From positions 1 to 39,281 of the IMG/VR virus record IMGVR_UViG_3300043423_000015: DNA of 39,281 bases, one strand, 5' to 3'. Under the pieces are notes generated by a model. The model was not told where the DNA came from, searched no databases, and saw only the letters and a list, made by a program, of their open reading frames with translations. This DNA comes from a virus (lineage: Duplodnaviria > Caudoviricetes). Shown piece by piece: positions 1 to 37,334 of this stretch. The position numbers were made by a program, and so were the translations under genes. The first letter of the stretch is position 1, and each line of letters opens with the position of its first letter.

Positions 1-127
1 ATTGCCAACCTCATCAATTCAACCCTCTACAAGCTGCGCTTCCTCAAGTAAGTTTGCAGACAGCCACGGGAATGGCTGAACCGTTGTGAATAGTCGAAAC
101 CTACCTAGTGTAGGTTTTGGCGTTTAT
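1..127. repeat. Exact terminal overlap with 39155-39281 (circular assembly)
   Basis: attgccaacc...ggcgtttat is identical at both ends; 127 is a common assembler k-mer; the overlap cuts through the last CDS. Confidence 0.95.
61..118 (+). terminator. Two hairpins after the last rightward gene
   Basis: cagcca-cgggaa-tggctg (61-78) and aaacctac-ctagt-gtaggttt (97-117). Confidence 0.45.
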
Positions 128-820
128 GGTGGGTATGTTGAGGGCTTTTTGTAAAGCAGTTGGCCCTGATAAAAATAAAAAATAGTGTCAATCGACTGAG
201 CTTGTTTAAAAAAAAGTTTCCAGCCAAAAATCACGCGCTCATTTTTTTTTCCAAAAACCTCGGGTGGAGGGGGTCAAAAAATAACCGCTTTTTTCCCATA
301 ATTCCCTATATCCGAGTCGGAAATAGGGTCTAATTATGTATAGTTAAACCGAGGCGAAAACCGATTCGGGCATTCTCCGAATTCTGAAAATCCATCGACT
401 CGCCCTCGGGAGCGGGTCAAATCGGGCGAATGAGGCGAGATAATCCCGTCTTAATAGGTTGATATACCTCAACCCACCGAGGCCGTTCTAGGCCGTTTTC
501 TCATCCCCTCAAAATCGGCCCGAATTAGGCCCGAAAACCTTAATTCGGTCAATCCCGACAGATTCCCCACCGATTCCCGACCGATTCGCCCATCCCTGCG
601 CCCCTGCGCTGAAATAGAACGGGAAACCCTGAAAACGGGGTCGAATCCCTGCGAATTGGTCGGCCCATCCTATAAGGGCGAGCAAATCCCCGACCCCTAA
701 GGGCCAAAAACGGAAACCGAAAACGAAAAAACCTAGGGGCCGACCGAGAACAAATCTCAATCGACCCCTAGGTCTATTCGCTTTTCAGGGGAAAACGGGA
801 AACCCTAGATTTTTAGACGT

Positions 821-1054
821 TCATTCGTGCGATTTGGCGAACCTCGAATATCGTTCTAGAACAGCCCACGCCTCGGCGCGTTCGGTGGGTGATTCTGGTT
901 TTCGACATCGACGAAAATATGCTCGGGACGATTGAACGTGTCCCTCGGCCTCGGAGAATGCCCCGATTGATTTGTCCCGTTCGACCTCATCGGGAAAGAA
1001 TAGGACGGGACGGTCGGCCCCGTTGATTTGCTCGAATCGAATCTCAATTTTCAT
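821..1054 (-). CDS. Hypothetical protein, last gene of the terminal leftward operon
   Basis: ATG at 1054 behind a GGGGG-type RBS; overlaps the stop of the upstream gene. Confidence 0.7.
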   Translation of the reverse strand: MKIEIRFEQINGADRPVLFFPDEVERDKSIGAFSEAEGHVQSSRAYFRRCRKPESPTERAEAWAVLERYSRFAKSHE

Positions 1055-1304
1055 CTTCGCCCCCATAGGCTGATTCGATGACTCGGCCCGAATGGGCGCA
1101 GATTAGATTCTCGCCCTCCCAATGAACAAAAACGGCCTCGGGAGTCCATTCGCGCCCCGATTCCCTGCGAATCAATCGGTAATTTTCACGCGCCGATTGT
1201 GAGTCGATGACCTCCCCATCCCTCATAAGTAGGGCGCAGGGATAACCCCCCGGCCACGCCCACCCACCCGACCGAATGAAATTTTGAATGTCGGTTTTTT
1301 GCAT
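1044..1304 (-). CDS. Hypothetical protein (GGWAWPGGYP motif)
   Basis: RBS ggggg-tctaaaa-ATG; tightly packed operon. Confidence 0.8.
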   Translation of the reverse strand: MQKTDIQNFIRSGGWAWPGGYPCALLMRDGEVIDSQSARENYRLIRRESGREWTPEAVFVHWEGENLICAHSGRVIESAYGGEDEN

Positions 1305-1306
1305 TT

Positions 1307-1798
1307 TTAGACCCCCGCGCAGCGTTCGTAAATAAAACCCGAGTCATCGCTCGGAATGTAGTCCCGCCTCGCTGCGAAGATGGAAACCCCCGCCTCGGCG
1401 CATAATTCGACCCGTTCGCACAGTCGAAGTGACTCCCAATACTGTTCGGCCTCGGCCCATTCCAATTCGGAAAAGTGGGACTCATCGAGAACGGGATAAT
1501 CTGCGAGGGCGCAGGCCATCGCATCGGCTGCGAGGATGGCCTCGACGTTCGATTCGTGAATAGCCACCCATTCGACCCACCCGACCGCCCAATGACGTTC
1601 GCGAACGACTAGAACGGAATCGGATTCGCCCCCGAGGGCGCGGAGGCCGCATTCAAAATTAGAACGGGTCAACGCATCGGAATCTCGGGATTGACCGATA
1701 AAAACGAAATATTCGGGCCATTCCGCGCCGAAATACGAATCGGGCATCGTCCATCGTTCGAGGGCGCGGATGTTTTCGAGATGTTCTAAGTTTTTCAT
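1307..1798 (-). CDS. Acidic, aromatic-rich hypothetical protein (HWAVGWVEW motif)
   Basis: Start moved to MKNLEH at 1798, overlapping the upstream stop. Confidence 0.8.
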   Translation of the reverse strand: MKNLEHLENIRALERWTMPDSYFGAEWPEYFVFIGQSRDSDALTRSNFECGLRALGGESDSVLVVRERHWAVGWVEWVAIHESNVEAILAADAMACALADYPVLDESHFSELEWAEAEQYWESLRLCERVELCAEAGVSIFAARRDYIPSDDSGFIYERCAGV

Positions 1799-2268
1799 AC
1801 TAAGTGGCCCCCCTCGTCGAATTCGTACCCGTTCGCCTCGATTGATTCCTCGACGGCCTCGTCCGAATACTGATATTCGATGTCGTTCTCGACTTCTCGC
1901 ACGAATGCGTCGAGCGCAGATTTGAACGATTCGAGGGCATCCCCCGTTTTTTTCCATTCGTCGGCAAATGTATAACGCAAAGATGAGTCGAAGCAAAAAC
2001 CCGTGGGCATCGCTTCGCGGTCGAATTGGGACAATTTGCGCCCCCTAAAATTTGAATTGTCGGCATCGGTGCGAATGAATGCACCACGGCCCCCGATGGA
2101 ATAGTCGAGAACCTTAATCCCGAATTCGTCGCAGAATTCGCGCAGGGATGATTTAACCTCGGCCCACCACGGGTATTCGAGGCCGCTTCGATACCATTCT
2201 CGGGCGCGAGATTTGGCGTATTCGTCCAACTCGTCGAAGGTATAAATTGTTTTTTCAATCGTTCGCAT
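1795..2268 (-). CDS. Acidic hypothetical protein (YTFDEL...AREWYR; EYQYSDEAVEESIEANGYEF), like proteins of plasmid/ICE leading regions
   Basis: GGAG RBS before MRTIEK; family recalled from motif, not searched. Confidence 0.75.
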   Translation of the reverse strand: MRTIEKTIYTFDELDEYAKSRAREWYRSGLEYPWWAEVKSSLREFCDEFGIKVLDYSIGGRGAFIRTDADNSNFRGRKLSQFDREAMPTGFCFDSSLRYTFADEWKKTGDALESFKSALDAFVREVENDIEYQYSDEAVEESIEANGYEFDEGGHLV

Positions 2269-2509
2269 TGTCGTTTTCTCCGTGTTCAAGTATTGAGAGA
2301 ATCGCGGTCACTGATTTTTTCAATTCCGTTCTGTTTTTCATCGCTGATAGACAGCCCTTGTATTCTTGCGTTCGCGTAATGTCGAGACAATAGATTCTTA
2401 ATAGGCCGTCTATTTCTTGTCCGAGTAAATCCTCGTCGTGGATTTTTGCGTTCGCCTCATCGTGGAAAATCATTCCATCCGAGCATAAAAAAGCGGTAAT
2501 TTCTCGCAT
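2255..2509 (-). CDS. Hypothetical protein
   Basis: AAGGGG RBS before MREITAF. Confidence 0.7.
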   Translation of the reverse strand: MREITAFLCSDGMIFHDEANAKIHDEDLLGQEIDGLLRIYCLDITRTQEYKGCLSAMKNRTELKKSVTAILSILEHGENDNAND

Positions 2510-2519
2510 TGTCGGCCCC

Positions 2520-2843
2520 TTAAAAGCAAAGATAGACGACCGATGAGTCATTCGACCCGACGACCGAGGTGTTGTCGTTCAAGTAGTCGAGAACGACCTC
2601 GCGAACCTCGTCCTCGTCCTCGCATTCGCTGATGTCGATGGAATAATTCGAGGCGACATCCTCGAATGAGTCCTCGGAGAATTCGCAGCAAATCGCGATA
2701 ACGTCCAATTCGGTCGAGTCGAATTCCTCGAAATAGTCGAAAAGCCAGTCATAAGCGATGTATGAGAATTGGTCATAACGCCCATATTGGCGGAATTCGT
2801 CGCGCAATTCCGAGGCCGAGTCGATTGTTTTAATGAATGGCAT
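2520..2843 (-). CDS. Very acidic 107-aa protein, candidate DNA mimic
   Basis: 28 D/E versus 5 K/R; AAGGGG RBS. Confidence 0.8.
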   Translation of the reverse strand: MPFIKTIDSASELRDEFRQYGRYDQFSYIAYDWLFDYFEEFDSTELDVIAICCEFSEDSFEDVASNYSIDISECEDEDEVREVVLDYLNDNTSVVGSNDSSVVYLCF

Positions 2844-2853
2844 TTTTAACCCC

Positions 2854-2949
2854 TTATTTGGTGAGAATGTCGAAGTAAGCGAGGGCGCAGACTGCGAGGG
2901 CCGCGCCGATAGTGAGTGCTGCGATAATGTCGAGGATTTGGTTTTTCAT
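2854..2949 (-). CDS. 31-aa single-TM peptide MKNQILDIIAALTIGAALAVCALAYFDILTK
   Basis: Translated by hand; fills the operon gap; stop overlaps the next RBS. Confidence 0.6.
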   Translation of the reverse strand: MKNQILDIIAALTIGAALAVCALAYFDILTK

Positions 2950-2958
2950 GGGTTCGCT

Positions 2959-3114
2959 TTATTGGTTAATTGTGTTGATTGAATGGACGGGAAACGAGTC
3001 CCGAGGAATGACGACTAATTCGCCGAATCCGTTGTCTGCGTAACATAGGACAATCGAACGAGTGATGTAGACGGAGGGCCGTTCGATACACCAAAAACCG
3101 AGCAAAGTTTGCAT
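2959..3114 (-). CDS. Hypothetical 51-aa protein, first gene of the terminal operon
   Basis: Same aaggggttaaaaATG initiation region as 2843. Confidence 0.6.
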   Translation of the reverse strand: MQTLLGFWCIERPSVYITRSIVLCYADNGFGELVVIPRDSFPVHSINTINQ

Positions 3115-3159
3115 TTTTAACCCCTTAAAAATTCCCCCCGATTTGGTGGGATGCCCCAA

Positions 3160-3192
3160 TGCTAGCATGAAAAGTTGAGCAAAATAAACCTA
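3160..3192 (-). promoter_or_regulatory. Putative extended -10 promoter (TGcTAGCAT) for the leftward terminal operon
   Basis: Divergent gap between 3114 and HNH; weak -35. Confidence 0.4.
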
Positions 3193-3216
3193 GGACAAAC
3201 CCTAAGATAAAAAAAG

Positions 3217-3645
3217 ATGCCGATTCTCCCTAAAAATCAGAAATGTGATGCGCTGCGCTGCGCCGAATCAAGGGTCGAGGGGTCGGCGTATTGTGAGAAC
3301 CACGGAGGGCGCAGGAAAATTAGCATCGAACGTCATTCGCACAATGCGGCCTACAAATCGAGGGCGTGGGCGCAGATAAGGGCCGCGCAGTTATCCCGCG
3401 CCCCATTGTGCGAACGATGCAAATATGAGGGGCGCATCGTTCAAGCCGCCCACGTTGACCACGTTTTTCCGTGGGCCATTATTGGGGGCGAATCATTCCA
3501 CCGAAATTTGTTCGCGTCATTGTGCGCCCCGTGCCATTCTCTGAAAACCTCAATCGAACGTCGAGGCGTGTTCACCCGATACACCGACCACGGCCCGATT
3601 GAATACACCGCGAACGACTATCGGCGAATCGTTCTCGGCGAATAA
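3217..3645 (+). CDS. Packaging-associated HNH endonuclease (HK97 gp74-like)
   Basis: PLCERC...HVDHVFP...LCAPCHSLKT; lies upstream of terS. Confidence 0.9.
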   Translation: MPILPKNQKCDALRCAESRVEGSAYCENHGGRRKISIERHSHNAAYKSRAWAQIRAAQLSRAPLCERCKYEGRIVQAAHVDHVFPWAIIGGESFHRNLFASLCAPCHSLKTSIERRGVFTRYTDHGPIEYTANDYRRIVLGE

Positions 3646-3929
3646 CCCACGGCCTAGGCCCATCCCTGCGCCCCTAGGCCCATTCCTAGGCGTTTCCCTG
3701 CGCTGATTCCCCCATCTCATCCCCATCGAGGCCGCATCGCCTCGGGCATCTCTGCGCCTCGCCCTCAAATCGAATACTAATTCGCTCAATTATGGCAAAT
3801 TGGGCGTTTTCACGTTTTCTATTTGTGACCTCCGCCCATATAATCGACCCGTTTTCGAGGTTGATATGCGTTCGATTCGCTCAATTTGTAGTGCATTCGT
3901 ATTCAAATCGATGCGCCGAGGGTGAAAAA

Positions 3930-4015
3930 CGCGCCGATTAAGAACTAAAAAGTCACAGATGCGGTCGGGAGCAGGCGCGGGGTCAATTTCGTAGAGATTG
4001 AAAGTCGGGAGGGGG
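3930..4015. other. Presumed cos/packaging-initiation region
   Basis: Position between HNH and terS as in HK97-type phages; GC-rich core gagcaggcgcgggg; composition switches here. Exact cut site unknown. Confidence 0.4.
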
Positions 4016-4053
4016 AGTAAGCTATACTCCTTGACAGAATTTAGGGAATTCCC

Positions 4054-4425
4054 ATGAAAAAAGCGCCCAAACACATCATCAATTACATCCGCGACCCAGA
4101 GACTTGGGATGCGACTGCTTTTGAGACTCAGATTCGTAGCGAAGTGGAAGGCTCCACAGGCGCTTTGACCGCGAGTGATGAAACGCTTGTGGGAATGTTG
4201 GTGATGACCATGCAAAGTTTGATTGATGCCGAGCGCGTGATTCAGACCCAAGGCATGATTGAGCATTACAACTCTGGCCCTGCCACTTCTCCGTACTACA
4301 AGATAAGAACCGAATGTCTCGACAAGGCAATCAAGATACTGGCCGAGCTTGCGCTTGTGGCCCGTGGTCGCCCCAAAAAGACATCCACACCCACTGCCAT
4401 AGATGAGTTATTCAACACTGCTTGA
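4054..4425 (+). CDS. terS: Terminase small subunit (P27-like)
   Basis: Size, position, overlap with terL, helical SPYYKIRTEC segment. Confidence 0.75.
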   Translation: MKKAPKHIINYIRDPETWDATAFETQIRSEVEGSTGALTASDETLVGMLVMTMQSLIDAERVIQTQGMIEHYNSGPATSPYYKIRTECLDKAIKILAELALVARGRPKKTSTPTAIDELFNTA

Positions 4426-6076
4426 ACCGGCGTTTAAGTACGCCACTGCCGTAGTTCGCGGCGACCAGCTCGCGTGTGAAGATGTCAAGATTGCCTGTCA
4501 ACGCTTCTTGGACATGGTTGAGCGCAAAGACGCGCCCTACGAGTTTGTCCCCGCCAAAGCTGAACACATCCTCAAGTTTGCCAAGTTCTGTCGCCATGTC
4601 AAAGGGCCAGACGCAGGTAAGTCGATTGAGCTTGAGGGTTTTCAGGTTCTATTCCTTGCGGCGGTGTATGGCTTCCGAAACAAGAAAGACCACAGCGTTC
4701 GATGGGTGACGGACGTTATCCTGTTCGTGCCGCGCAAGTCTGGAAAGACAACCCTTGCGTCCATCATTGCCCTGTATGAGCTGCTGTTTGGCGAAGCTGG
4801 CCCCGAGGTGTTTACCTTGGCGACCAACCGTGAGCAGGCATCAATTTGCTTCGACTCGTCCAAGGCCATCATGGAAAGCATGGCCCCTGAGTTGCAGAGC
4901 CGATTCATTCCGTTCCGAAGTGAGTTGAAAAAGGCTGGCGACTCCACATCCACCTACCGCGCCCTATCGCGTGAAAACCGTAAGACTGGTGACGGCAAAA
5001 ACCCATCGTGCGCGATGATTGACGAGGCGGCTCAGATTACCGAGCGCGGCTCAATCGAGGTGTTGCACTCGGGCATGGCTGCTCGTAAGAATCCTTTAAG
5101 GATGTACCTGACGACTGCCAGCTTCACCAAAGAGACAAAGTTCTATGAGGACTTGAACCATTTTCGGGCTGTGCTGCGCGGCGCGGCGGAAGATTCGTTT
5201 CGTTGGTTTGGCTTGCTGTACTCGGTTGACCCCGGCGATGAGTGGTCTGACCCCTCCGTATGGGGCAAAGCCAACCCCATGCTTGGCGTGTCGGTCACAA
5301 CCGAGGCCATTCAGCACATGGCTGATGAGGCCAAGAGCAAGCCTGCATCCCTTAACGAATTCTTGTGCAAGCAGCTCAATATCTACGTCAGTTCCAACGC
5401 TGCGTGGGTTGACCGTCGATATTGGGATGAATCCGTGGCTGAAATGCCCGTTGACAAGCCAGAGGCCACGTTCATTGGATTTGACTTGGCTCACAGTCGA
5501 GATTTGAATGCCGTGGTGACGCTTCACCGATATGACGAGGAAGACCTTTACGCTAAGTTCAAGTTCTTCTTGCCAGAGGAGTCGATTGAGCTGATTCCGA
5601 ACCACTACAAGTCGATTTTCAGTCAGGCGGTGGCATCGGGCATCTTGCATCTAACGCCCGGCAACGTCACCGACTTGAACGAGATTGAGTCCTACATTCG
5701 TCAACAGGCGGAAATATATGAAGTCAAAGAAATTGGCTATGACCCTTACAACGCTGCTGCTCTTGTCGCCAATCTTTTCTCCTATGGCCTTCCAGTCAAA
5801 AAGGTTGGACAAGGCATGGCAGTACTATCCAACCCGTCGAAAACGGCAGAACAGCTCATCCTCAAAAAAGCCATCAAGCACGATGGAAATCCGTTTGTGG
5901 GGTGGCAACTCGGTAACTGTGAGGTATACACCGATGTGAATGGCAACGTAAAAGTGAGAAAAAACGAAGCCGACCCATCCGCCAAGGTTGACGGAATCAT
6001 TGCCATGATTATGGCTTTGCACTGCCATTTGGATAACGTATTTGTATCAGACTCCTATGGACTACGATTATTTTGA
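4403..6076 (+). CDS. terL: Terminase large subunit (HK97-type)
   Basis: Walker A VPRKSGKT, Walker B MIDEAA, GFDLA, YDPYNA, KVDGIIA. Confidence 0.97.
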   Translation: MSYSTLLEPAFKYATAVVRGDQLACEDVKIACQRFLDMVERKDAPYEFVPAKAEHILKFAKFCRHVKGPDAGKSIELEGFQVLFLAAVYGFRNKKDHSVRWVTDVILFVPRKSGKTTLASIIALYELLFGEAGPEVFTLATNREQASICFDSSKAIMESMAPELQSRFIPFRSELKKAGDSTSTYRALSRENRKTGDGKNPSCAMIDEAAQITERGSIEVLHSGMAARKNPLRMYLTTASFTKETKFYEDLNHFRAVLRGAAEDSFRWFGLLYSVDPGDEWSDPSVWGKANPMLGVSVTTEAIQHMADEAKSKPASLNEFLCKQLNIYVSSNAAWVDRRYWDESVAEMPVDKPEATFIGFDLAHSRDLNAVVTLHRYDEEDLYAKFKFFLPEESIELIPNHYKSIFSQAVASGILHLTPGNVTDLNEIESYIRQQAEIYEVKEIGYDPYNAAALVANLFSYGLPVKKVGQGMAVLSNPSKTAEQLILKKAIKHDGNPFVGWQLGNCEVYTDVNGNVKVRKNEADPSAKVDGIIAMIMALHCHLDNVFVSDSYGLRLF

Positions 6077-6106
6077 GTGATAACATCACGGAAACTAGGA
6101 GCTGAC

Positions 6107-7504
6107 ATGGCTATTCTCGACATTTTCAAGCGCAAGTCCACGCAATCGGACGAAAGCAACAACCTTTTCGGCCAAACGGCTCTAGGTAACAACATTGTCT
6201 ATTCGGGTAGCAATACTCGCCCGACCGTCAACACTCAAGTCCTGTATGTGACGACCGCCAGCACGAATACCGCTGGTCGCGTTATCAACATGGACTTGTT
6301 GACTCGCAACAGCACCATCATGGCTTGCGTTGGAGCGAAAGCCCGGGCCTTGGCTCAGTTGCCAATCAAAATCATGTCAGAGCAGGAGGATGGCTCATAT
6401 CTTGATGCCGTGAAAGACAAGGCTGTTGGCGTTCGCGACAAGAATAAAGCCAAGCAAGTCTCCAAGCTGCTGAACAACCCCAACAACTTCCAATCAAAAT
6501 ACGAGTTCTGGTATCAGTGGCTCATGTGGTTGGAATTGTCTGGCGAAGCGTTTACCCTTTGGTGGCGCGAAGACCAAAAGAACCCTTCACAGACTCCAAT
6601 GGAGATGTATGTGTTGGATTCGACGTTGATTGCCGTGACCATCAATCCTGCGCGTTACCCTTCTTACCGCCTGTCTACTCCGTCATACGGTTTCAGCAAA
6701 GATGAGCCATTGGCCGCTCATCAAGTGATGCACATTAAAGAAGCAGCATGGCAAGGTTCCGCTGGTTTCAACAAAGGCATCTTGGCTGCTGAATTGGTGA
6801 CGCTTGACCAAGACATTGACGTTTACGCCAACTTCATCATGCTCAACGGCGCGAAACCAACAGGTATGTTCACGACCGAACAAGTCATCCCTGACGGCAA
6901 GTACAAGGAATTGGCCTCTCGCTTGAAAGAGGCTTGGTCAAACATGACTGGTAGCCAACGCACTGATGAGTCCAAGCCGGGCCAAGGTATGTTGCTTGAC
7001 CAAGGCATGAAGTACACCCCAATCGACATCCTCACTTTGCAAGACACTCAAGCTGCCGAGTTGAAGATTCAAACCATGAAGCGTATTTGTGGTTTGTTTG
7101 GTGTGCCTCCAGCCATGATTGGCATTGGCGACTCCAAGTACAACAACACTCAAACCATGTTGGACGAGTTCTACAAGTCAACGATGTACCCAACCATCGT
7201 GAACGTCCAAGAGAAATTGAAGCAACAGTTGTTCAATGGCTACCCTTCATTGTGTGTTCAGTTCGATACGGCAAACTTCTTGAAGGGCGCTCCAATCGAC
7301 CAAATGAACTATGTGAAGGCTGGCGTTGATGCTGGCATTCTGACTCCAAACGAAGCGCGTGAATATCTGAACAAAGCTCAGATGGAAGGCGGCAACGAGT
7401 TGAAGCAAGACACAAAACCAAGCGACCCAATTGCAGGCTCAAGCCCTCAAGACACCGGTGGTGGTGGCGGAAACCAAAAGAACAAAGCAAACATCGGCAA
7501 ATAA
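6107..7504 (+). CDS. Portal protein, HK97 family
   Basis: LLNNPNNFQS, ICGLFGVPPAMIG, GILTPNEAR; AGGAG RBS before ATG 6107. Confidence 0.95.
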   Translation: MAILDIFKRKSTQSDESNNLFGQTALGNNIVYSGSNTRPTVNTQVLYVTTASTNTAGRVINMDLLTRNSTIMACVGAKARALAQLPIKIMSEQEDGSYLDAVKDKAVGVRDKNKAKQVSKLLNNPNNFQSKYEFWYQWLMWLELSGEAFTLWWREDQKNPSQTPMEMYVLDSTLIAVTINPARYPSYRLSTPSYGFSKDEPLAAHQVMHIKEAAWQGSAGFNKGILAAELVTLDQDIDVYANFIMLNGAKPTGMFTTEQVIPDGKYKELASRLKEAWSNMTGSQRTDESKPGQGMLLDQGMKYTPIDILTLQDTQAAELKIQTMKRICGLFGVPPAMIGIGDSKYNNTQTMLDEFYKSTMYPTIVNVQEKLKQQLFNGYPSLCVQFDTANFLKGAPIDQMNYVKAGVDAGILTPNEAREYLNKAQMEGGNELKQDTKPSDPIAGSSPQDTGGGGGNQKNKANIGK

Positions 7505-7637
7505 ATGTCGTTGATTTTTAAGATTATGGTAGCATCGTTGGTAGCAAATAGGCCAACGGTTGCGCCGCCTCCAAAGCGCGGTCGGCCACCAAAAACAATA
7601 CACGACATTGATTTATCTAAAGTCGATGAGGTAATCC

Positions 7638-8438
7638 ATGACGCAAAACTTGATGATGGTGTGCGAGGCCAAACTGGTTCTCGAAAAAGCAGGCAACGCA
7701 GAGCCAACAGGCAATATTGAAGCAGTTGTCACAACTTGGGGGCCACGCGAAGGTGCTGATGGCCGCAAGTTCAACTATCAACCCGAAGCATTTATGCAAT
7801 GGGCAGAGTCGTTCAGCAAAGCTGGTCGTCCTCTCCCAATGTTCGTGAACCATGATGCTGATTCCATCCCCGTGGGTGAATGGACATCATTTGAGTTTGA
7901 CGAAACTGGCATGAAAGCCTGCGGTCGTTTGTATATCAACACCACTCAAGGCTCTGACTTGTATCAAGTAATGAGCGAGTCACCAAATATGTTTGGTGGC
8001 GTGTCTGTTGGCGCATACGCCGAAGAATATCAGTGGACAAAAGAAGACGGCACTCCAATGACCGTTGGTTCTGATGACCCATACGAAGACGGCTACTTCC
8101 AAATCACCAAAGGTGGTCTGCGCGAAGTGTCAGTCGTGATGTACCCGAACAATCCAATGGCCGAAGTGCAAAAGCTGGAGTATTTCCGCGCTGATGGCAC
8201 TGCCGACCTAAAAGTTTTGGAACAAGCCCTGCGTGATGCTGGTCTATCCAAGAAAGATGCGGTCGCTGCCGCATCTACATTCAAGAAAGTAATTGAGCAG
8301 CGTGACGCTACTCAAGAGCCTATTGAAGCTGCGACGACTCAGAGCGATTCTGATGCGGAAGCGACCAACGCAGCAATTCTCGAAGCTCTTGAGCAACGCG
8401 AATTGTTAAAACTCCTCGACAAGCGCCTGAAAGGTTAA
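7638..8438 (+). CDS. Prohead maturation protease (HK97 family)
   Basis: PMFVNHD, PVGEW, GGVSVG, LREVSVVMYPNN; GAGG RBS. Confidence 0.92.
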   Translation: MTQNLMMVCEAKLVLEKAGNAEPTGNIEAVVTTWGPREGADGRKFNYQPEAFMQWAESFSKAGRPLPMFVNHDADSIPVGEWTSFEFDETGMKACGRLYINTTQGSDLYQVMSESPNMFGGVSVGAYAEEYQWTKEDGTPMTVGSDDPYEDGYFQITKGGLREVSVVMYPNNPMAEVQKLEYFRADGTADLKVLEQALRDAGLSKKDAVAAASTFKKVIEQRDATQEPIEAATTQSDSDAEATNAAILEALEQRELLKLLDKRLKG

Positions 8439-8440
8439 TC

Positions 8441-9784
8441 ATGTCAAAAGAAATCATCGAAAAATTAGATGCCATCGAAGCTAAACAAGCTGAGAGCATC
8501 GTGGCTGTTGAAGCCAAAATCCCTGCTGCCATCGAAGCTGTTAAAGCCGAAATGAGCGAAATGGTTGCCGCTTTGGAAGCCAAAGTTGCCGCTATTCCTG
8601 CTGCCGCAGTTCACAAAGAAAAAGCCAAATCTGTTCGCCAAGATGTGAACCGTTCGGTGAAAGAACAGCTCAAGGCAATCGCCGAAGGCAAAAACACCCT
8701 TGAGAAACAACTGCAAGTTTTTGCTGATGAATCTCAAATGGAAGCCTACATGAAAGAAGCCTCGGCTCTGACTGCTGGTGGTGACGGTAAGGGTGGTCGT
8801 ACTGGCTATGACCCTGTGTTTGCTGCTTTGCGTTTGGCTAACCCAATGCGCGGCGTGTCTCGCACTGTGGCTACCGATGGCTCTAGCTATCAATTCCGCG
8901 TGAAGACTGGCAATGCTGGTGCTGCATGGGGCTACACAATCCAGAACAACGGTTCGGCAACAACTGAAAACACTTCAATCTGGCAATTGGTTTTGCAAGA
9001 CTTGAACGTGCAGTTCCCTATCCGTACTGCTGCTCTTGACGACATCGACGGTTTGGAAGCAAACGTGGTTGACGATATGTTGGCTGAATTCGCACAAGCC
9101 GAAGCTCTGTCAATGATTCAAAACAACGACCAAGGCTCTACCAGCTTGCCATACGGCGGCTCTAACGGTCTGCGCGGTTTGAACCAATACGCTGGCGCTG
9201 CTTCGACATACGCTGGTGGCTCTACTACTACTGCTGCTTTTGGTAGCTCTGGTACTGGTTCTACAAGCGGCTTGCACAGCTTGGCTACTTATGACCAGTT
9301 GACTTCCAACGTGAACACTGTCGGTGCTGCAAACATCACCTACAAAGACGTTGTGAACTTCATCTACGCATTGCCACAACAATACTGGACTGAGAGCGCT
9401 AAGTTCATCATCAACCCAGTTTTGTTGTCACAAATCCGTGGTTTGACAGACGACAATGGCACTCCTGTGTTTGAGCGTATGTCTCCTCTGGAAACCAATG
9501 GCATCGTTGGTCGCTTGTTGGGCTTCGACGTTGTGGTTAACAAGTACTTGGACAACCCAAGCCAAGCAACTGCCGCCTCTGCTGGCACAACTAGCTTGTA
9601 CCCAATGTACTTCGGTGACTTCCAACGTGGTCACACCATCATTGACCGTCTGAACATGGTTATGCGCCGTTATGACCAGACAGCCCCCGGCTACATCACC
9701 TTCTTCGGTGAAAAGCGTCTGGCTACATCTGTGCGTGACCCATTTGCTATCGTGCGTTACCGCTCGACTGGCACTGCCGCCTGA
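8441..9784 (+). CDS. Major capsid protein (HK97 fold) with N-terminal coiled-coil scaffold (delta) domain
   Basis: Coiled-coil first ~105 aa; GRLLGFDVVVN, YFGDF, TFFGEKR; strongly biased codons. Confidence 0.95.
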   Translation: MSKEIIEKLDAIEAKQAESIVAVEAKIPAAIEAVKAEMSEMVAALEAKVAAIPAAAVHKEKAKSVRQDVNRSVKEQLKAIAEGKNTLEKQLQVFADESQMEAYMKEASALTAGGDGKGGRTGYDPVFAALRLANPMRGVSRTVATDGSSYQFRVKTGNAGAAWGYTIQNNGSATTENTSIWQLVLQDLNVQFPIRTAALDDIDGLEANVVDDMLAEFAQAEALSMIQNNDQGSTSLPYGGSNGLRGLNQYAGAASTYAGGSTTTAAFGSSGTGSTSGLHSLATYDQLTSNVNTVGAANITYKDVVNFIYALPQQYWTESAKFIINPVLLSQIRGLTDDNGTPVFERMSPLETNGIVGRLLGFDVVVNKYLDNPSQATAASAGTTSLYPMYFGDFQRGHTIIDRLNMVMRRYDQTAPGYITFFGEKRLATSVRDPFAIVRYRSTGTAA

Positions 9785-9795
9785 TAGTTGCCTTG

Positions 9796-9822
9796 GATGG
9801 GGAGTTCGCTCCCCATCTTTTT
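9796..9822 (+). terminator. Rho-independent terminator between the two capsid genes
   Basis: gatggggag-TTCG-ctccccatc-ttttt, perfect 9-bp stem. Confidence 0.85.
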
Positions 9823-9841
9823 AACTCTCATTGGAAAAACT

Positions 9842-10858
9842 ATGACTATCACCGAAAAAATCCTGAACGGCATTAAGCAAGCCATTACCGAAGGTGGCAA
9901 AGTCACCATTGACCTGAAAGAAGCCTCTGCAATCACTGGTTCTGGTTCGGGCGTTGGTGGTAATGTTGTATTCGACGATGCGTTTGCCGCTCTGCGTCAA
10001 GCAAATCCACTGCGTCAAGGCTCACGCCAAATTGCCGTGAACGGCTCTGATGCTCAATTCGTTGCCAAGACTGGTAACGCTGCAAACTCTACAAACCCTT
10101 GGGGTTACGAATTTACTCCCAACACAGGTTCTCCTGATGTTGATACATCCATTTGGCAACTGCCAGTGCGAGTGTTGGTTGCACAGCTTCCAATCCGTAC
10201 CGCTGTTTTGTCGGATGTGAATGCGCTCGACGCAACCTTGGTTGAAGACTTGGCTCTTGAGTTCGCTCAATTGGAAGGTCAGTCAATGGTCTTGAACGAC
10301 GACCAATCTGGCTCCACCACTGAATCCACAGGCGCTGAATACGGTCTGCGTGGTTTGGATAGCTACCCATCTGGTTCCGTGAGCGCCTACGGCTCAAGCG
10401 GCACTGCAATGACTGATGGCTTGCATGACCTTGCCACCGTGTCTTTGGGTGGCTCTGCTGTGACCTACAACAAGATTGTGGACGCTGCAAACGCTCTGCC
10501 TGCTCAGTACTGGTCATTGGAAGGCACAGCTTGGCACATGAGTCCAGCAATGATTTTGGCTCTGCGCGAGTTGAAGGATAGCTCTGGTATGCCTTTGTTC
10601 TTGGAAATTGGTGACGCTGATGGCGCGGCTGTTGGTCGCGTGTTCGGTTGGCCTGTCATTCCAAACCCATACCTGTCCACTGACTTCCCTGTGTACTTGG
10701 CAAATTGGAACCGCTTTTTGACGATTGGCGACACTGAGCAGATGAATGTTCAGATGTACGAGCAAACGCAGCCCGGCTTCATTACCTTGTACGCCGAAAA
10801 GCGCGTGGTAAGCTCTGTGCGCGACCCGTTCGCTGGTGTCCGTATTAGCGCAGCATAA
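9842..10858 (+). CDS. Second capsid-family protein, paralog of 8441-9784 without the long scaffold domain
   Basis: Collinear shared motifs KEASA, FAALRxANP, KTGNA, SIWQL, PIRTA, GLRGL, ALPxQYW, SVRDPFA. Confidence 0.92.
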   Translation: MTITEKILNGIKQAITEGGKVTIDLKEASAITGSGSGVGGNVVFDDAFAALRQANPLRQGSRQIAVNGSDAQFVAKTGNAANSTNPWGYEFTPNTGSPDVDTSIWQLPVRVLVAQLPIRTAVLSDVNALDATLVEDLALEFAQLEGQSMVLNDDQSGSTTESTGAEYGLRGLDSYPSGSVSAYGSSGTAMTDGLHDLATVSLGGSAVTYNKIVDAANALPAQYWSLEGTAWHMSPAMILALRELKDSSGMPLFLEIGDADGAAVGRVFGWPVIPNPYLSTDFPVYLANWNRFLTIGDTEQMNVQMYEQTQPGFITLYAEKRVVSSVRDPFAGVRISAA

Positions 10859-17451: not shown

Positions 17452-18041
17452 ATGTAATTGCGCCAGTTGACGGAACAAGCAGCATTCGACTTGCTGACTT
17501 TGTTCGTGTAAATACTGGAGGCGACATCTATCGCTTCACTACGGCCCCGTCAGATACTTTGGTTCCCGCTGTCGATTCCACTGCTTTTAGTGCAGTTGGG
17601 ACATTGATGAAGGTGGGCGATGTTCAGCGCGACATCAAGAGTACGGCTAACGAGACATCCGTTACCTTGATTGGCATTGACACTGCTATGTTGGGTTGGG
17701 TTCTTGGTCAAACCGTAAAAGGCTCTCAGATTGAGATGTGGCATGGTTTTTACAATGAAAGCAATGAGCTTCTTACAAGCGGCGGTTCTGGCGGTTTGTA
17801 TCAATTCTTTAGTGGTGTAATCACATCATTCACCATCTCTGAAACATGGATGGAGGAAGCCCGTGGCTATGTTGGAACAATCACAATCTCCGCATCTGCC
17901 ATTCAGTTGATTCTCCAAAATAGGATTGCTGGTCGATACACCAACAACAACTCATGGCAGTTCTTTAATGATGGCGATACATCCATGAATCGCGTGAACT
18001 TCATTGAGACAATCAACTACCAATTTGGCAAGGGCGCATGA
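17448..18041 (+). CDS. Tail tip/hub protein
   Basis: Position; beta-rich; overlapping start/stop. Confidence 0.6.
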   Translation: MNVIAPVDGTSSIRLADFVRVNTGGDIYRFTTAPSDTLVPAVDSTAFSAVGTLMKVGDVQRDIKSTANETSVTLIGIDTAMLGWVLGQTVKGSQIEMWHGFYNESNELLTSGGSGGLYQFFSGVITSFTISETWMEEARGYVGTITISASAIQLILQNRIAGRYTNNNSWQFFNDGDTSMNRVNFIETINYQFGKGA

Positions 18042-18484
18042 TTGTTCGTCGGGCGACTCCATTTGATGTGCCTGTCCTACTGGATATGCTTCGTCGATAC
18101 AGGAAGTTGACTCCTTTGGCCTTCCTTGCGGAAGCTGACGATGCTGAATATGTGACAAAGCTATTGACTGAGATGATGGCTGGCAAAGGAGTTGTCCTTG
18201 TTGTTGACAATGATGGCATTGTTGGTATGTTGCTTGCTTCTATTGCTCCAAGCATTTGGTCGCCAAAGCACCTTTTGATGACTGAGTTGGCTTATTGGGT
18301 TGAGCCTGAATCTCGCGGAGGAACGGCTGGATATAGACTGCTTGCTGAGTACAAAAAAATAGGCGAGCAAATGAAGCAAGAAAAGCGCATCTGTAATTTC
18401 TTAATCAGTAAAATGAGCAACAGCCCGAACTTGCAGTATCAGAAGTTCGGATTCGACAAACTAGAAGAATTTTGGGTGGCCTAA
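18038..18484 (+). CDS. GNAT-family acetyltransferase
   Basis: IVRRATPFD, ELAYWVEPESRGGTAGYRLL, YQKFGF. Confidence 0.85.
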   Translation: MIVRRATPFDVPVLLDMLRRYRKLTPLAFLAEADDAEYVTKLLTEMMAGKGVVLVVDNDGIVGMLLASIAPSIWSPKHLLMTELAYWVEPESRGGTAGYRLLAEYKKIGEQMKQEKRICNFLISKMSNSPNLQYQKFGFDKLEEFWVA

Positions 18485-34111: not shown

Positions 34112-34454
34112 ACTTGATTTCCCTCCTGCCGAACTATTCCCAAATCGAGCCAAGGGAACGCATTGGGCCAAGCTGTACCAAACTCGCAGTGACTACCGCG
34201 AAGGTTCAACATGGCTTGCCAAACACCAAATTAAAGATTGGAAGCATGACGGTGGAGACATCCGCCTAAAGCTGACATTCATCATGCCCGACAAGCGGAT
34301 GCGTGATGCTGATAACTGCCTGGCGGCAGCTAAAGGTGCGTTGGATGGACTGTCAGATGCCTTGATGGTGAATGACAAGTTCTTTCAACCCATCGAAATC
34401 CATCGTCAATTTGGCGATAAATCAACCCGTAAACTTATCGTGGAGATAGCATGA
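34101..34454 (+). CDS. rusA: RusA-like Holliday junction resolvase
   Basis: PDKRMRDADNCLAAAKGALDGL...NDKFF. Confidence 0.85.
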   Translation: MRIELDFPPAELFPNRAKGTHWAKLYQTRSDYREGSTWLAKHQIKDWKHDGGDIRLKLTFIMPDKRMRDADNCLAAAKGALDGLSDALMVNDKFFQPIEIHRQFGDKSTRKLIVEIA

Positions 34455-34702
34455 CAATACAGAAGACCCTCAAACAGCGCCAAAAGACTCATGGCAGCTT
34501 CTCAACCCACGCTGTTATTAGCCAACAGCTCAAAGCCGTAATGCGTGAGCATGGGCTGCTTGAGTTGGCTCCAGACCAAATCGAAGCGTTGGAAATGATT
34601 GCTCACAAGATTGCGCGTGTACTGAATGGCAATCCAGACCATCACGACCATTGGCATGACATTTCTGGCTACGCTGAGTGCGCGGCTGAACGCTTGGAGT
34701 AA
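34451..34702 (+). CDS. DUF6378-like protein, copy 1
   Basis: RQKTHGSF...KIARVLNG...DHWHDISGYA. Confidence 0.8.
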   Translation: MTIQKTLKQRQKTHGSFSTHAVISQQLKAVMREHGLLELAPDQIEALEMIAHKIARVLNGNPDHHDHWHDISGYAECAAERLE

Positions 34703-34708
34703 ATCGAC

Positions 34709-34909
34709 ATGACAAGACAAGAATACTACGAGCATTTGTGTGAACTTGGACTTCCTGAACTGATTTCGGCATCAATGGCCGCTCAATCAGTCAGGGGAGC
34801 AAGGGATAGAAAAAGCTCATCCATGAAATACGCCGTGTACTGCTTTCAAAGTTGGAATCAGACATGGGAAGGCCAAGAGTTTTGGTCTGAATTTGTGGAC
34901 TTGGTATGA
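34709..34909 (+). CDS. Hypothetical protein
   Basis: GGAG RBS; WEGQEFW. Confidence 0.65.
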   Translation: MTRQEYYEHLCELGLPELISASMAAQSVRGARDRKSSSMKYAVYCFQSWNQTWEGQEFWSEFVDLV

Positions 34910-35325
34910 AGTACAAGCTCTACGAAGAAAAGCAAGCACACGCCACCATGTTGGCCGTATGGAACATCATCAAGGAATCAATCTATGGCGGCAAGAAAGT
35001 CATATTGGAGGTCACAGAAGAAAAACGCTCTGACCCTCAAAATAAAAAATTCCACGCCATCATTGGTCAGATTGCGAAGCAGGCGCAACACGCTGGAGCA
35101 ACTTGGGATGTTGAAGATTGGAAACGGTTTCTACTCGACCAGTTTGCAACTGACCGTGGGATGGAGGGAGGCTCTGTGATTCAGTCATTGGACGGCCATC
35201 GAGTCGTTCAACTTGGCATCCAAAGCCGCAAATTCACCAAGGCCCAAGGCGCTGAGTTCATCGAGTGGCTGCTAATGTGGTCTGCAACCAACGGAATCGA
35301 CATCAAAGAACCAGATTGGCAATAA
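34906..35325 (+). CDS. ninB: NinB/Orf-like recombination protein, copy 1
   Basis: RSDPQNKKFHAIIGQIAKQ...EDWKR...QSRKFTK. Confidence 0.85.
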   Translation: MKYKLYEEKQAHATMLAVWNIIKESIYGGKKVILEVTEEKRSDPQNKKFHAIIGQIAKQAQHAGATWDVEDWKRFLLDQFATDRGMEGGSVIQSLDGHRVVQLGIQSRKFTKAQGAEFIEWLLMWSATNGIDIKEPDWQ

Positions 35326-36425: not shown

Positions 36426-36685
36426 GATATGCAGCAAGGGTTGACGCCACGCAGGAACAAGTCGTTTCTGCATTACGGGCTGCTGGTGCTTATGTCTATC
36501 CTATTAAGTTGCCTGTGGACTTATTGGTTGGTTATAACGGCGTGACTTATTTGGTAGAAGTGAAATCCACGCATAAAAGCCTTTTAACTAGGCTACAACA
36601 GATTTTTTTTGCTAAATGGACTGGTGGTAGGTTGGAACGAATTGAAAGCCCTGAACAAGCCTTGAGAATGATTGGAGTGATATGA
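36422..36685 (+). CDS. PD-(D/E)XK nuclease (VRR-NUC-like)
   Basis: PVDLLVGY...LVEVK...LTRLQQIF. Confidence 0.8.
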   Translation: MRYAARVDATQEQVVSALRAAGAYVYPIKLPVDLLVGYNGVTYLVEVKSTHKSLLTRLQQIFFAKWTGGRLERIESPEQALRMIGVI

Positions 36686-36933
36686 CAATTGAAAAAACAT
36701 TGAAACAACGTCAAAAGACACATGGCGACTTTGCAACACACGCAAAAATCAGCCAAGACCTTAAAAACGTAATGCGTGAACATGGGCTTTATGAACTTGA
36801 CGCAGACCAGATTGAGGCTTTGGAAATGATTTGCCACAAGATTGCCCGTGTGCTGAACGGCAATCCAAACCATCACGACCATTGGCACGACATTGCTGGC
36901 TACGCAACTTTGGTGGGCGACAGGCTGAAATGA
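36682..36933 (+). CDS. DUF6378-like protein, copy 2
   Basis: 65 of 83 residues identical to 34451-34702 (hand count). Confidence 0.8.
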   Translation: MTIEKTLKQRQKTHGDFATHAKISQDLKNVMREHGLYELDADQIEALEMICHKIARVLNGNPNHHDHWHDIAGYATLVGDRLK

Positions 36934-37334
36934 GATATGACCTTGACAATCCAGAGCAAGCCACAACGCTGATGCAAAACCTGTGGCCCAAGGTCAAGGC
37001 TGCATTGGCGGCAGGGCGTAAGCTGACGCTAGAAGTCAAAGACGCAAGCAAAAGCCGTGACACTGAAAAGCTGTATCACGAATTGATTGGTCAGATTGCT
37101 AAACAAGCACAGCATCTAGGTGCTAAATGGTCTGCTGAAGACTTTAAGCGTTTGCTTGTTGACCAATTTGTGCGTGAGATAGGTTTGGCTGGCGGCAAAG
37201 TGATTCCAAACCTTGATGGCACAGGGATTGTCCAGCTTGGCTTTCAAACTAGAAACTTTACGCAAGAGCAAGGCAGTCAATTTATTGAATGGCTTTATGC
37301 TTGGGGTGCTACAAACGGCATCACTTTTGAGTAA
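36930..37334 (+). CDS. ninB: NinB/Orf-like protein, copy 2
   Basis: YHELIGQIAKQAQHLGAKW...VQLGFQTRNFT...FIEWL. Confidence 0.85.
   Translation: MRYDLDNPEQATTLMQNLWPKVKAALAAGRKLTLEVKDASKSRDTEKLYHELIGQIAKQAQHLGAKWSAEDFKRLLVDQFVREIGLAGGKVIPNLDGTGIVQLGFQTRNFTQEQGSQFIEWLYAWGATNGITFE

Follow-up and report, generated by a model that had tools for sequence, protein, structure and literature searches.

Why should a few kilobases at one end of a phage genome use short words so differently from the DNA that follows? The question is raised by IMG/VR virus record IMGVR_UViG_3300043423_000015 (Duplodnaviria; Caudoviricetes), whose 39,281 nucleotides, hereafter the window, contain the complete 39,154-bp genome of a phage known from freshwater metagenomes, assembled as one circular contig with an end overlap of 127 bp. 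A preliminary description of this DNA had singled out positions 300 to 3960, just before the terminase gene terS, as a leading region purged of host defence targets so that it could be expressed ahead of the entry of the remaining DNA. We find that this segment is, very probably, a leading region purged by restriction-modification, namely, by many Type I systems. We also lean towards the whole of the explanation, in which the purged segment would enter first and alone, its early genes would be expressed, and the rest would come later.

A terminal segment with its own vocabulary

Relative to the rates in the rest of the genome, positions 300-3960 are saturated with TCG/CGA (312 against 83 expected), CCC/GGG (188 against 56) and GAAT/ATTC (105 against 30), in agreement with the preliminary description, and are poor in CAG/CTG (48 against 128), AAG (46 against 151), CAA (100 against 250) and AGC (40 against 138). 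The claimed gap in AGCT was also borne out: the word occurs at 199 and 4020 with no copy in between, and 130 times in the rest of the genome. The scarcity of CAG/CTG stands as well, but its confinement to GCGCAG contexts is true for just over half of the copies at best, with 27 of 48 inside CGCAG and 16 of 48 inside GCGCAG. By a 3-mer statistic the segment scores 1303, against 28-139 for 18 windows of the same length elsewhere, and Markov changepoints fall at ~225 and ~4013. The segment is therefore real and sharply bounded, and only its limits had to be redrawn, since the inner edge lies at ~225-260 rather than 300 and the outer edge is the cohesive-end site, cos, described below.

The shift is found on both strands, across two non-coding blocks, minus-strand genes (seven open reading frames, ORFs, of at least 50 amino acids) and the plus-strand gene for an HNH endonuclease, and it stops before terS and terL, whose vocabulary is ordinary. 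GC content moves little, from 47.5 to 51.7%. No chimeric junction was seen; a chimeric assembly is contradicted by two runs that cover 1-6000 unbroken, which may be the window's own source and hence not independent of it, and by independent IMG/VR contigs with the same layout.

A spacing deficit that matches Type I sites

A context scan first gave an unexpected signal 7-8 bases from adenines. When A followed by T at distance d is counted relative to a reference of d14-30, the mean ratios over all 25 segments studied are 0.70/0.75/0.82/0.87 at d7/8/9/10, against 1.02/0.95/0.96/0.98 in backgrounds, and they are ~1.0 at d5-6 and from d11. At d7 the deficit reaches z of -3.9 to -7.4 in all 10 representatives examined, in which the reverse arrangement, T...A, stays at 0.94-0.97 over d7-10. 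No depletion is seen where the sequence upstream of both adenines is all A/T (251/241 at d7). Type I sites are bipartite, with one methylated adenine per half, and all the numeric intervals given in Table 1 of one account are of 6-9 bp (PMC3874165). An interval of 6-9 bp between methyl-adenines is equivalent to d7-10 with A before T, and thus matches the measured deficit. In addition, half-sites of eight textbook Type I systems form 103 pairs at their own spacing in the segments, compared with 154.5 at wrong spacings, and 1446 compared with 1443 in the backgrounds. After GC correction, the pooled 3-mer losses are CAG, GAG, AGA, GAC, AGC and ACT, and the gains CCC, CCG, TAA, AAA and CGC.

Could the deficit arise with no defence involved, from a local mutation bias, from selection on DNA shape (A-tract phasing, hairpin avoidance) or from selection on codons or mRNA? 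The large dinucleotide shifts in the segment, where CG is raised and CA lowered, would agree with such causes, as would the slight rise of A...A at d7-11 and the A/T tracts at the inner edge. However, the deficit is limited to d7-10 and to A before T, with C...G near 1 like T...A; it affects the two strands equally and extends to non-coding as well as coding DNA; and it survives a synonymous-codon shuffle (94 against 124 at d7, z -4.6; a full codon shuffle gives 136). One and the same word may also shift in opposite directions between lineages, CGA by +1.9 log2 here and by -1.8 in the segment of genome G007. No neighbour-dependent mutation is known to act over 7-10 bp. Codon bias, already considered a poor fit in the preliminary description, and any mRNA-level cause were rejected on the grounds of strand symmetry, non-coding presence and the shuffle. 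A deficit so specific in spacing and orientation already goes most of the way to refuting the explanation as a whole, which we regard as scarcely credible. Avoidance of CRISPR protospacer-adjacent motifs was also discarded, because it would not predict a dip at d7-10.

The segment is the right end of a linear genome

To place the genome ends we used IMG/VR loci, namely, the best 80 of 431 loci with a large terminase subunit (TerL) and the best 80 of 148 HNH loci. First, 28 HNH contigs end within 60 nt of an AACTAAA-like motif, and 18 of these stop at the equivalent of 3971. Second, 34 TerL contigs carry a post-cos motif in their first 120 bases, and 20 of these start at the equivalent of 3982. 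Third, the 10-nt sequence between both positions is conserved in those contigs of relatives that run through it. This arrangement fits fixed ends with a 10-nt 3' overhang, its 3' polarity being suggested by the gap in relatives' contigs, and HK97 has a 10-nt 3' overhang too (PMC9410871). Since contig ends stack at the equivalents of 3971 and 3982, the segment is the right end of the linear genome, and the terminus that had been expected near ~3960 is placed at 3972-3981. By the lambda/HK97 convention the right end is packaged last, and in the classical view it leaves first.

The gene content agrees with this type of phage: TerL, portal, protease and capsid are of HK97 class (phrog_9, phrog_12, phrog_80 and phrog_10, respectively), and an HNH family member lies just before cos. 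The tape measure has 792 amino acids and no sheath match was obtained among the 57 proteins scanned, which would be compatible with a long non-contractile tail.

A swappable module defined by position

Twelve near-complete genomes, the window included, were compared by blind segmentation. In eight of them, whose TerL are 85-100% identical, the strongest block lies 0-86 bp from the right end; in G010, G011, G015 and the nearest isolate, Methylophilaceae phage P19250A (TerL 61-83%, with P19250A at 61%), it does not lie there. The 25 segments measure 2.3-4.5 kb. By blastn they form at least seven groups that resemble one another little or not at all, and their words differ by lineage, as GAG, nearly gone in G006, and CGA illustrate. 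Compared with the window, G002 has terminase, portal, capsid, tail tip, fibre and lysin proteins 88-100% identical, an HNH at 58% and an unrelated segment, and modules are exchanged between phages with 93-99% identical TerL. Unrelated sequences and different words at one place imply that the block is a swappable module defined by position. Relatives show the shift again at this position, with other genes and other words.

Position by itself does not create the signal. Among the 74 of 80 HNH loci with enough upstream DNA, which are not mutually independent, the 27 with a minus-strand block have a mean ratio of 0.81 and the 47 without it a mean of 0.98. As these 47 share the same cos layout, being packaged last is not enough. 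Four module-less loci, L125, L133, L134 and L147, have the same late terminator as the segment-bearing G009/L090 family and no deficit in any of them, and the HNHs of L125 and L133 nest with that family, which suggests module loss with decay of the signature.

An imported cassette is a further alternative, that is, a block that was purged while it led the genome in other phages with fixed ends, or one carrying its donor's vocabulary, without any such selection here. Segment genes do occur in other phage groups, including Chi-like phages and phages of a different terminase class, and the HNH diverges along with the module, as in G002 (58% against 99% for TerL). In IMG/VR, the phages of the other class have related modules just before the terminase genes, with weaker deficits, and their TerL is ~32% identical to that of Pseudomonas and Vibrio podoviruses, which we take to have short terminal repeats. 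However, the shift includes the HK97-type HNH gene and the DNA from there to cos, at least seven segment lineages unrelated by blastn share position and deficit, and where other phages carry a segment gene the deficit is local too, most of these loci having 0.74-0.91 near the gene and 0.92-1.00 in those far flanks that could be measured. Of 25 loci that carry one segment gene, 22 were examined, and no donor with the vocabulary throughout was found among them; a whole-genome donor of the block was rejected on these 22 loci. We therefore consider an imported cassette quite improbable.

Two segments, L195:7900-11200 (G028) and that of L107, are rich in AT and depleted of CG, the reverse of the rest, yet keep the T-tract element of the next section. 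Matches to metagenome-assembled genomes were three only, to Rhodoferax and to Burkholderiaceae (TerL 60% for both) and to a short contig binned as Chitinophagaceae (85%), too little to name a host.

The inner edge and a proposed pause in entry

Segments were aligned on inner edges defined by 3-mer likelihood and their ratios pooled. The value is 1.04 for the 400 bp beyond the edge, drops to 0.83 and 0.71 immediately within it, and remains at 0.67-0.84 all the way to cos; this flat level describes a step, not a decay. In 24 of the 25 segments, an A-T8..11-A element is located no more than 120 bp from the changepoint. Runs of at least nine T are unique to the element in seven of the eight segment-bearing genomes, the window included, and were not found in the four genomes without a segment. 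Upstream of HNH, a run of at least eight T is present in 26 of 26 segment loci against 9 of 40 others, and four of eight segment-less loci inspected for their T8 look like hairpin terminators. An exact degenerate search for the element returned four loci.

Based on these results, we propose that the right-end segment would enter the host first, with its minus-strand operon transcribed inward from there, and that entry would halt near the T-tract. An operon product would then shield the later DNA, an acidic protein of 107 amino acids being the best candidate, and the remaining genome would follow once restriction is likely disarmed. The deficit, which extends over both strands and over coding and non-coding DNA likely because the segment enters first and is exposed on its own, may add up the marks left by a purge of many Type I specificities. 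Sites of Type IIG, Type III or BREX-like systems perhaps contribute to the loss of AG, and the enriched words (CCC, CCG, CGC and, here, TCG) would be what remains once words mixing A with G/C are lost.

Granted a leading region purged by restriction-modification, a true pause is probable, and the main rival dispenses with it. Type I systems could drive the purge if this end simply entered minutes ahead, or if a site-free end escaped cutting because the enzymes translocate and cut between sites, the sharp edge then reflecting module swapping at the T-tract. In line with this, the scans of PHROGs, Pfam and NCBIfam gave no label like those of the T5 entry proteins A1 and A2, no direct profile comparison with A1/A2 having been run; segment length varies with gene content; modules move among phages with near-identical TerL; and the end of lambda is itself mildly low. 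However, the profile is flat from cos to the edge and ends in a step, the inner non-coding block beyond the operon terminator is purged as well, the 47 module-less relatives with the same cos layout have no signal, and five short loci such as the two module-less ones nested among segment-bearing HNHs pool to 0.94-0.97. These features favour the pause, and we consider entry without it rather unlikely.

Several observations weigh against a purged segment that enters first and alone. Phages in this group are uncultured and the order of entry is read from sequence. In one in vitro study, lambda ejected either end first about half the time (PMC10287942), and hence the last-in-first-out premise of the preliminary description agrees with the classical view but is disputed. 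The first 1.3 kb of T7 have no A...T deficit, and the last 3.7 kb of lambda do have a mild one (0.92). Segment presence is not independent between genomes, since all 11 TerL rows with a segment belong to a single supported clade, even if the segment sequences are independent. G002, 88-100% identical to the window in the proteins listed above, avoids different words, so vocabulary is no simple readout of the host. In G028 the deficit is weak and not orientation-specific (A...T 0.85-0.95, T...A 0.88-0.92), and in G027 it is uneven. The 5' context expected of Type IIG/III sites is mixed, with NNNAG words absent in 47/339 against 22/324 for AGNNN, and NNNAC in 33/424 against 43/419 for ACNNN. In several lineages the T-tract directly follows a late terminator, and it may be no more than a junction at which modules recombine. 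The purge is also partial, as the eight textbook sites still occur 18 times against 27.9 at wrong spacers; those enzymes are enterobacterial and may not be the host's, and broad, partial purging is expected if the real targets are other enzymes. With each specificity purged in full, arithmetic asks for ~125 six-base or ~500 seven-base specificities.

Finally, the window's segment has an excess of the Type II palindromes GAATTC (7 against 3 in the rest of the genome), CCTAGG (6 against 0), TCGA, GGCC, GCGC and CGCG, which weighs against naked first-step DNA, as this should avoid those sites too. The purge of defence targets claimed originally thus holds for Type I spacing but not for all targets. 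Type II palindrome avoidance as a cause of the vocabulary was rejected because 6-bp palindromes are scarce genome-wide and several are commoner inside the segment. Over 1-39154 most 6-bp palindromes have zero copies, CCGG has 16, and GATC has five, all within 33-37 kb; this is genome-wide Type II-like avoidance with a small region escaping it.

Genes of the segment

The features discussed are collected in Table 1. The product of 2520-2843 belongs to a widespread viral family with 404 matches, and its acidity recalls that of the T7 anti-restriction protein Ocr, which has 34 acidic and 6 basic residues in 116 amino acids (PMC3874165). Its structural model (pLDDT, predicted local distance difference test, 86) gave no Foldseek match and a best VIA Z of 5.3, with no significant match to the Ocr or ArdA fold. 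We nonetheless regard it as the best candidate for an anti-restriction protein in the operon. The model of the 1795-2268 product (pLDDT 96) had no structural match either (best Z 4.9), and the product of 1307-1798 had no match in Atlas or among cultured phages.

Table 1. Features of the window and of related right-terminal blocks.
Feature	Position	Strand	Remarks
Terminal segment with shifted vocabulary and A...T deficit at d7-10	225..3971		Right end of the linear genome; d7 149 against 219 expected
Conserved T-tract element, A-T9-CC-A5	241..257	+	Candidate entry-stop signal, or junction of modules; other A/T tracts at ~206-293
Inner non-coding block, also shifted	258..820		Long minus-strand hairpin with T tail at 729-775, terminator-like end of the early operon
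81-residue protein	821..1066	-	Common to G009/L090-type segments
86-residue protein, phrog_18452	1044..1304	-	Family label DNA ligase, far too short for a ligase
163-residue acidic protein	1307..1798	-	31 D+E, 13 K+R
157-residue protein	1795..2268	-	Homologues in the Chi-like right-terminal block and a Caulobacter phage terminal repeat
98-residue protein	2255..2551	-	
107-residue very acidic protein	2520..2843	-	28 D+E, 5 K+R; candidate anti-restriction protein of the DNA-mimic kind
First ORF of the minus-strand operon	2959..3168	-	17-mer resembling a ribosome-binding site, repeated at 2840 and 3111, suggests a start near 3113
HK97 gp74-like HNH endonuclease adjoining cos	3217..3645	+	Has the segment vocabulary
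Outer non-coding block	3646..3971		Extends to the right genome end, with a conserved motif, AACTAAA, at 3943
Putative cos, the 10 nt CAGGCGCGGG that separate right from left contig ends in relatives	3972..3981	+	As for a 3' overhang
terS and HK97-class terL	4054..6076	+	Outside the segment; ordinary vocabulary
Right-terminal blocks of cultured cos phages	L207:14200-20001 (Utah 53.2-59.0 kb); L228:14500-20579 (Chi)		

Among 14 window proteins and 64 of 105 candidate ORFs of relatives' segments, no Ocr, ArdA or KlcA label was assigned. The scans of relatives' segment ORFs did match DUF7227, GP88, DUF6927, DUF6926 and TreK; genes like DUF7227, GP88 and DUF6927 recur in the purged modules of L086, L089, L100, L104 and L167, and a TreK-like gene is present in L091. 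DUF7227, GP88, DUF6927-like and TreK-like genes are further candidates for early anti-defence functions. On the minus strand, a hydrophobic ORF of 31 codons at 2854-2949, read by eye, resembles a small ORF in the G016 segment. A scan for sigma-70 promoters gave one site against 3.7 expected, and thus the early promoter could not be located.

Other features of the genome

The last late gene before the segment, at 38756-51 across the join, is Dps-like/DUF5856, and its homologues also flank the modules of the phages of the other terminase class (L193-L197). Two successive genes at 8441-10858 both match the major capsid family phrog_10 (447 and 356 amino acids), and a GNAT acetyltransferase gene lies within the tail module at 18038-18484. 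A pair consisting of a phrog_16943/474 gene followed by a NinB-like gene is duplicated, at 34451-35325 and 36682-37334.

Implications

A survey of ~4000 viruses reported that Type I site avoidance is absent at genome scale (PMC6286503), and a 2025 Murciavirus paper suggests as the reason that only early-injected DNA is selected (PMC12455610). The principle is thus already known from T5, BF23, T7 and murciaviruses (PMC10644984, PMC12455610). What the present analysis adds is that selection at a sub-genomic scale becomes visible without knowledge of host motifs, by means of a spacing and orientation deficit that also marks the first-step DNA of T5. A purged leading module in cos siphoviruses, or a summed spacing signature, was not reported in the open literature searched, subscription journals and supplements lying outside that search.

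Staged entry and its direction, as proposed here, are inferred. If true, staged or strongly polar entry would extend to cos siphoviruses, the direction of entry would be readable from sequence, and the purged modules would make up a short list for new anti-restriction proteins. It is tempting to go one step further and suggest, only tentatively, that T5-style staged entry operates in small cos siphoviruses, both abundant freshwater HK97-like phages and Chi-like ones. A swappable end module of 2-6 kb would enter first and halt at a cis signal (here the T-tract), and novel proteins would disarm Type I systems; the A-N6..9-T deficit could then be a host-independent marker of the entering end, the length of the first step, the Type I families of the host and the sites of new anti-restriction genes.

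Comparison with known systems

The closest precedent is T5, together with BF23 (Tequintavirus), in which small early genes are terminal and restriction sites matter only there, Type I and Type II systems being described as restricting T5-like phages mainly via first-step sites (PMC10644984). The stop signal of T5 is contained in a conserved non-coding block at the inner edge (10.1101/866236). In the first 40 of its 122 kb, we found A...T ratios of 0.84/0.85 at d8/9 for positions 1-9200 against 0.96/0.99 for 10.3-40 kb, d8-9 being the intervals of the Type IC and IA families (PMC3874165, Table 1). The GC-corrected 3-mer shift of our segments correlates with that of T5 (r 0.69), against 0.13 with the lambda end and -0.20 with the HK97 end. 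Blind 3-mer segmentation likewise picked 0-10 kb in T5 and 0-1 kb in T7, and internal regions instead in lambda and HK97. The differences are nevertheless clear. T5 has 121-122 kb with 10-kb direct terminal repeats, whereas the window phage has 39 kb, a putative 10-nt cos and a single-copy block; T5 needs A1/A2; and its edge is an array of repeats and DnaA boxes where the window phage has a T-tract, DnaA boxes not having been searched for. The deficit of the window phage is also stronger than that of T5, and includes d7 and d10.

T7 and murciaviruses (Autographiviridae) resemble the segment in that the early genes at their fixed end are variable and read inward, with Type I sites counterselected only there, and murciaviruses are restricted via early-injected sites (PMC12455610). 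They differ in being podoviruses with their own RNA polymerase, plus Ocr in T7; no phage single-subunit RNA polymerase was found among the 57 window proteins scanned, nor an unassigned ORF of that size. Moreover, the Murciavirus result concerns one motif, whereas the trace described here would be a sum over many specificities. In conjugative plasmids, the leading region is comparable in that it is first-entering DNA, rich in anti-defence genes and with its own composition, and different in that it enters single-stranded and that the account cited found no consistent depletion of short palindromes (PMC13478746).

HK97-type cos siphoviruses share with the window phage the order HNH-cos-terS-terL and the 10-nt end gap (PMC9410871), but HK97 and P19250A are without the terminal block or the deficit. 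Indeed, the last 3.7 kb of HK97 have a ratio of 0.96 and the last 3 kb of the window phage one of 0.82, against a null of 128 windows with a mean of 0.975 and a minimum of 0.879.

Lastly, Chi-like phages provide cultured cos phages with a comparable block. Cohesive ends are annotated in phage Utah, and the homologue of the 1795-2268 gene lies in its 5.8-kb right-terminal block, whose ratios at d7-10 are 0.90/0.90/0.79/0.83, those of Chi being 0.90/0.88/0.77/0.82, strongest at d9-10 in both cases. The inner non-coding block of Utah holds repeated short motifs. No report of staged entry in Chi-like phages came up in our literature search. Their genes run towards the genome end, whereas the operon of the window phage runs inward, and the edge in Utah has no run of at least seven T, unlike that of the window phage. 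Between the Chi-like 3-mer shift and the mean of the freshwater segments the correlation is r 0.88, and these coliphages allow tests of the proposed entry in Escherichia coli.

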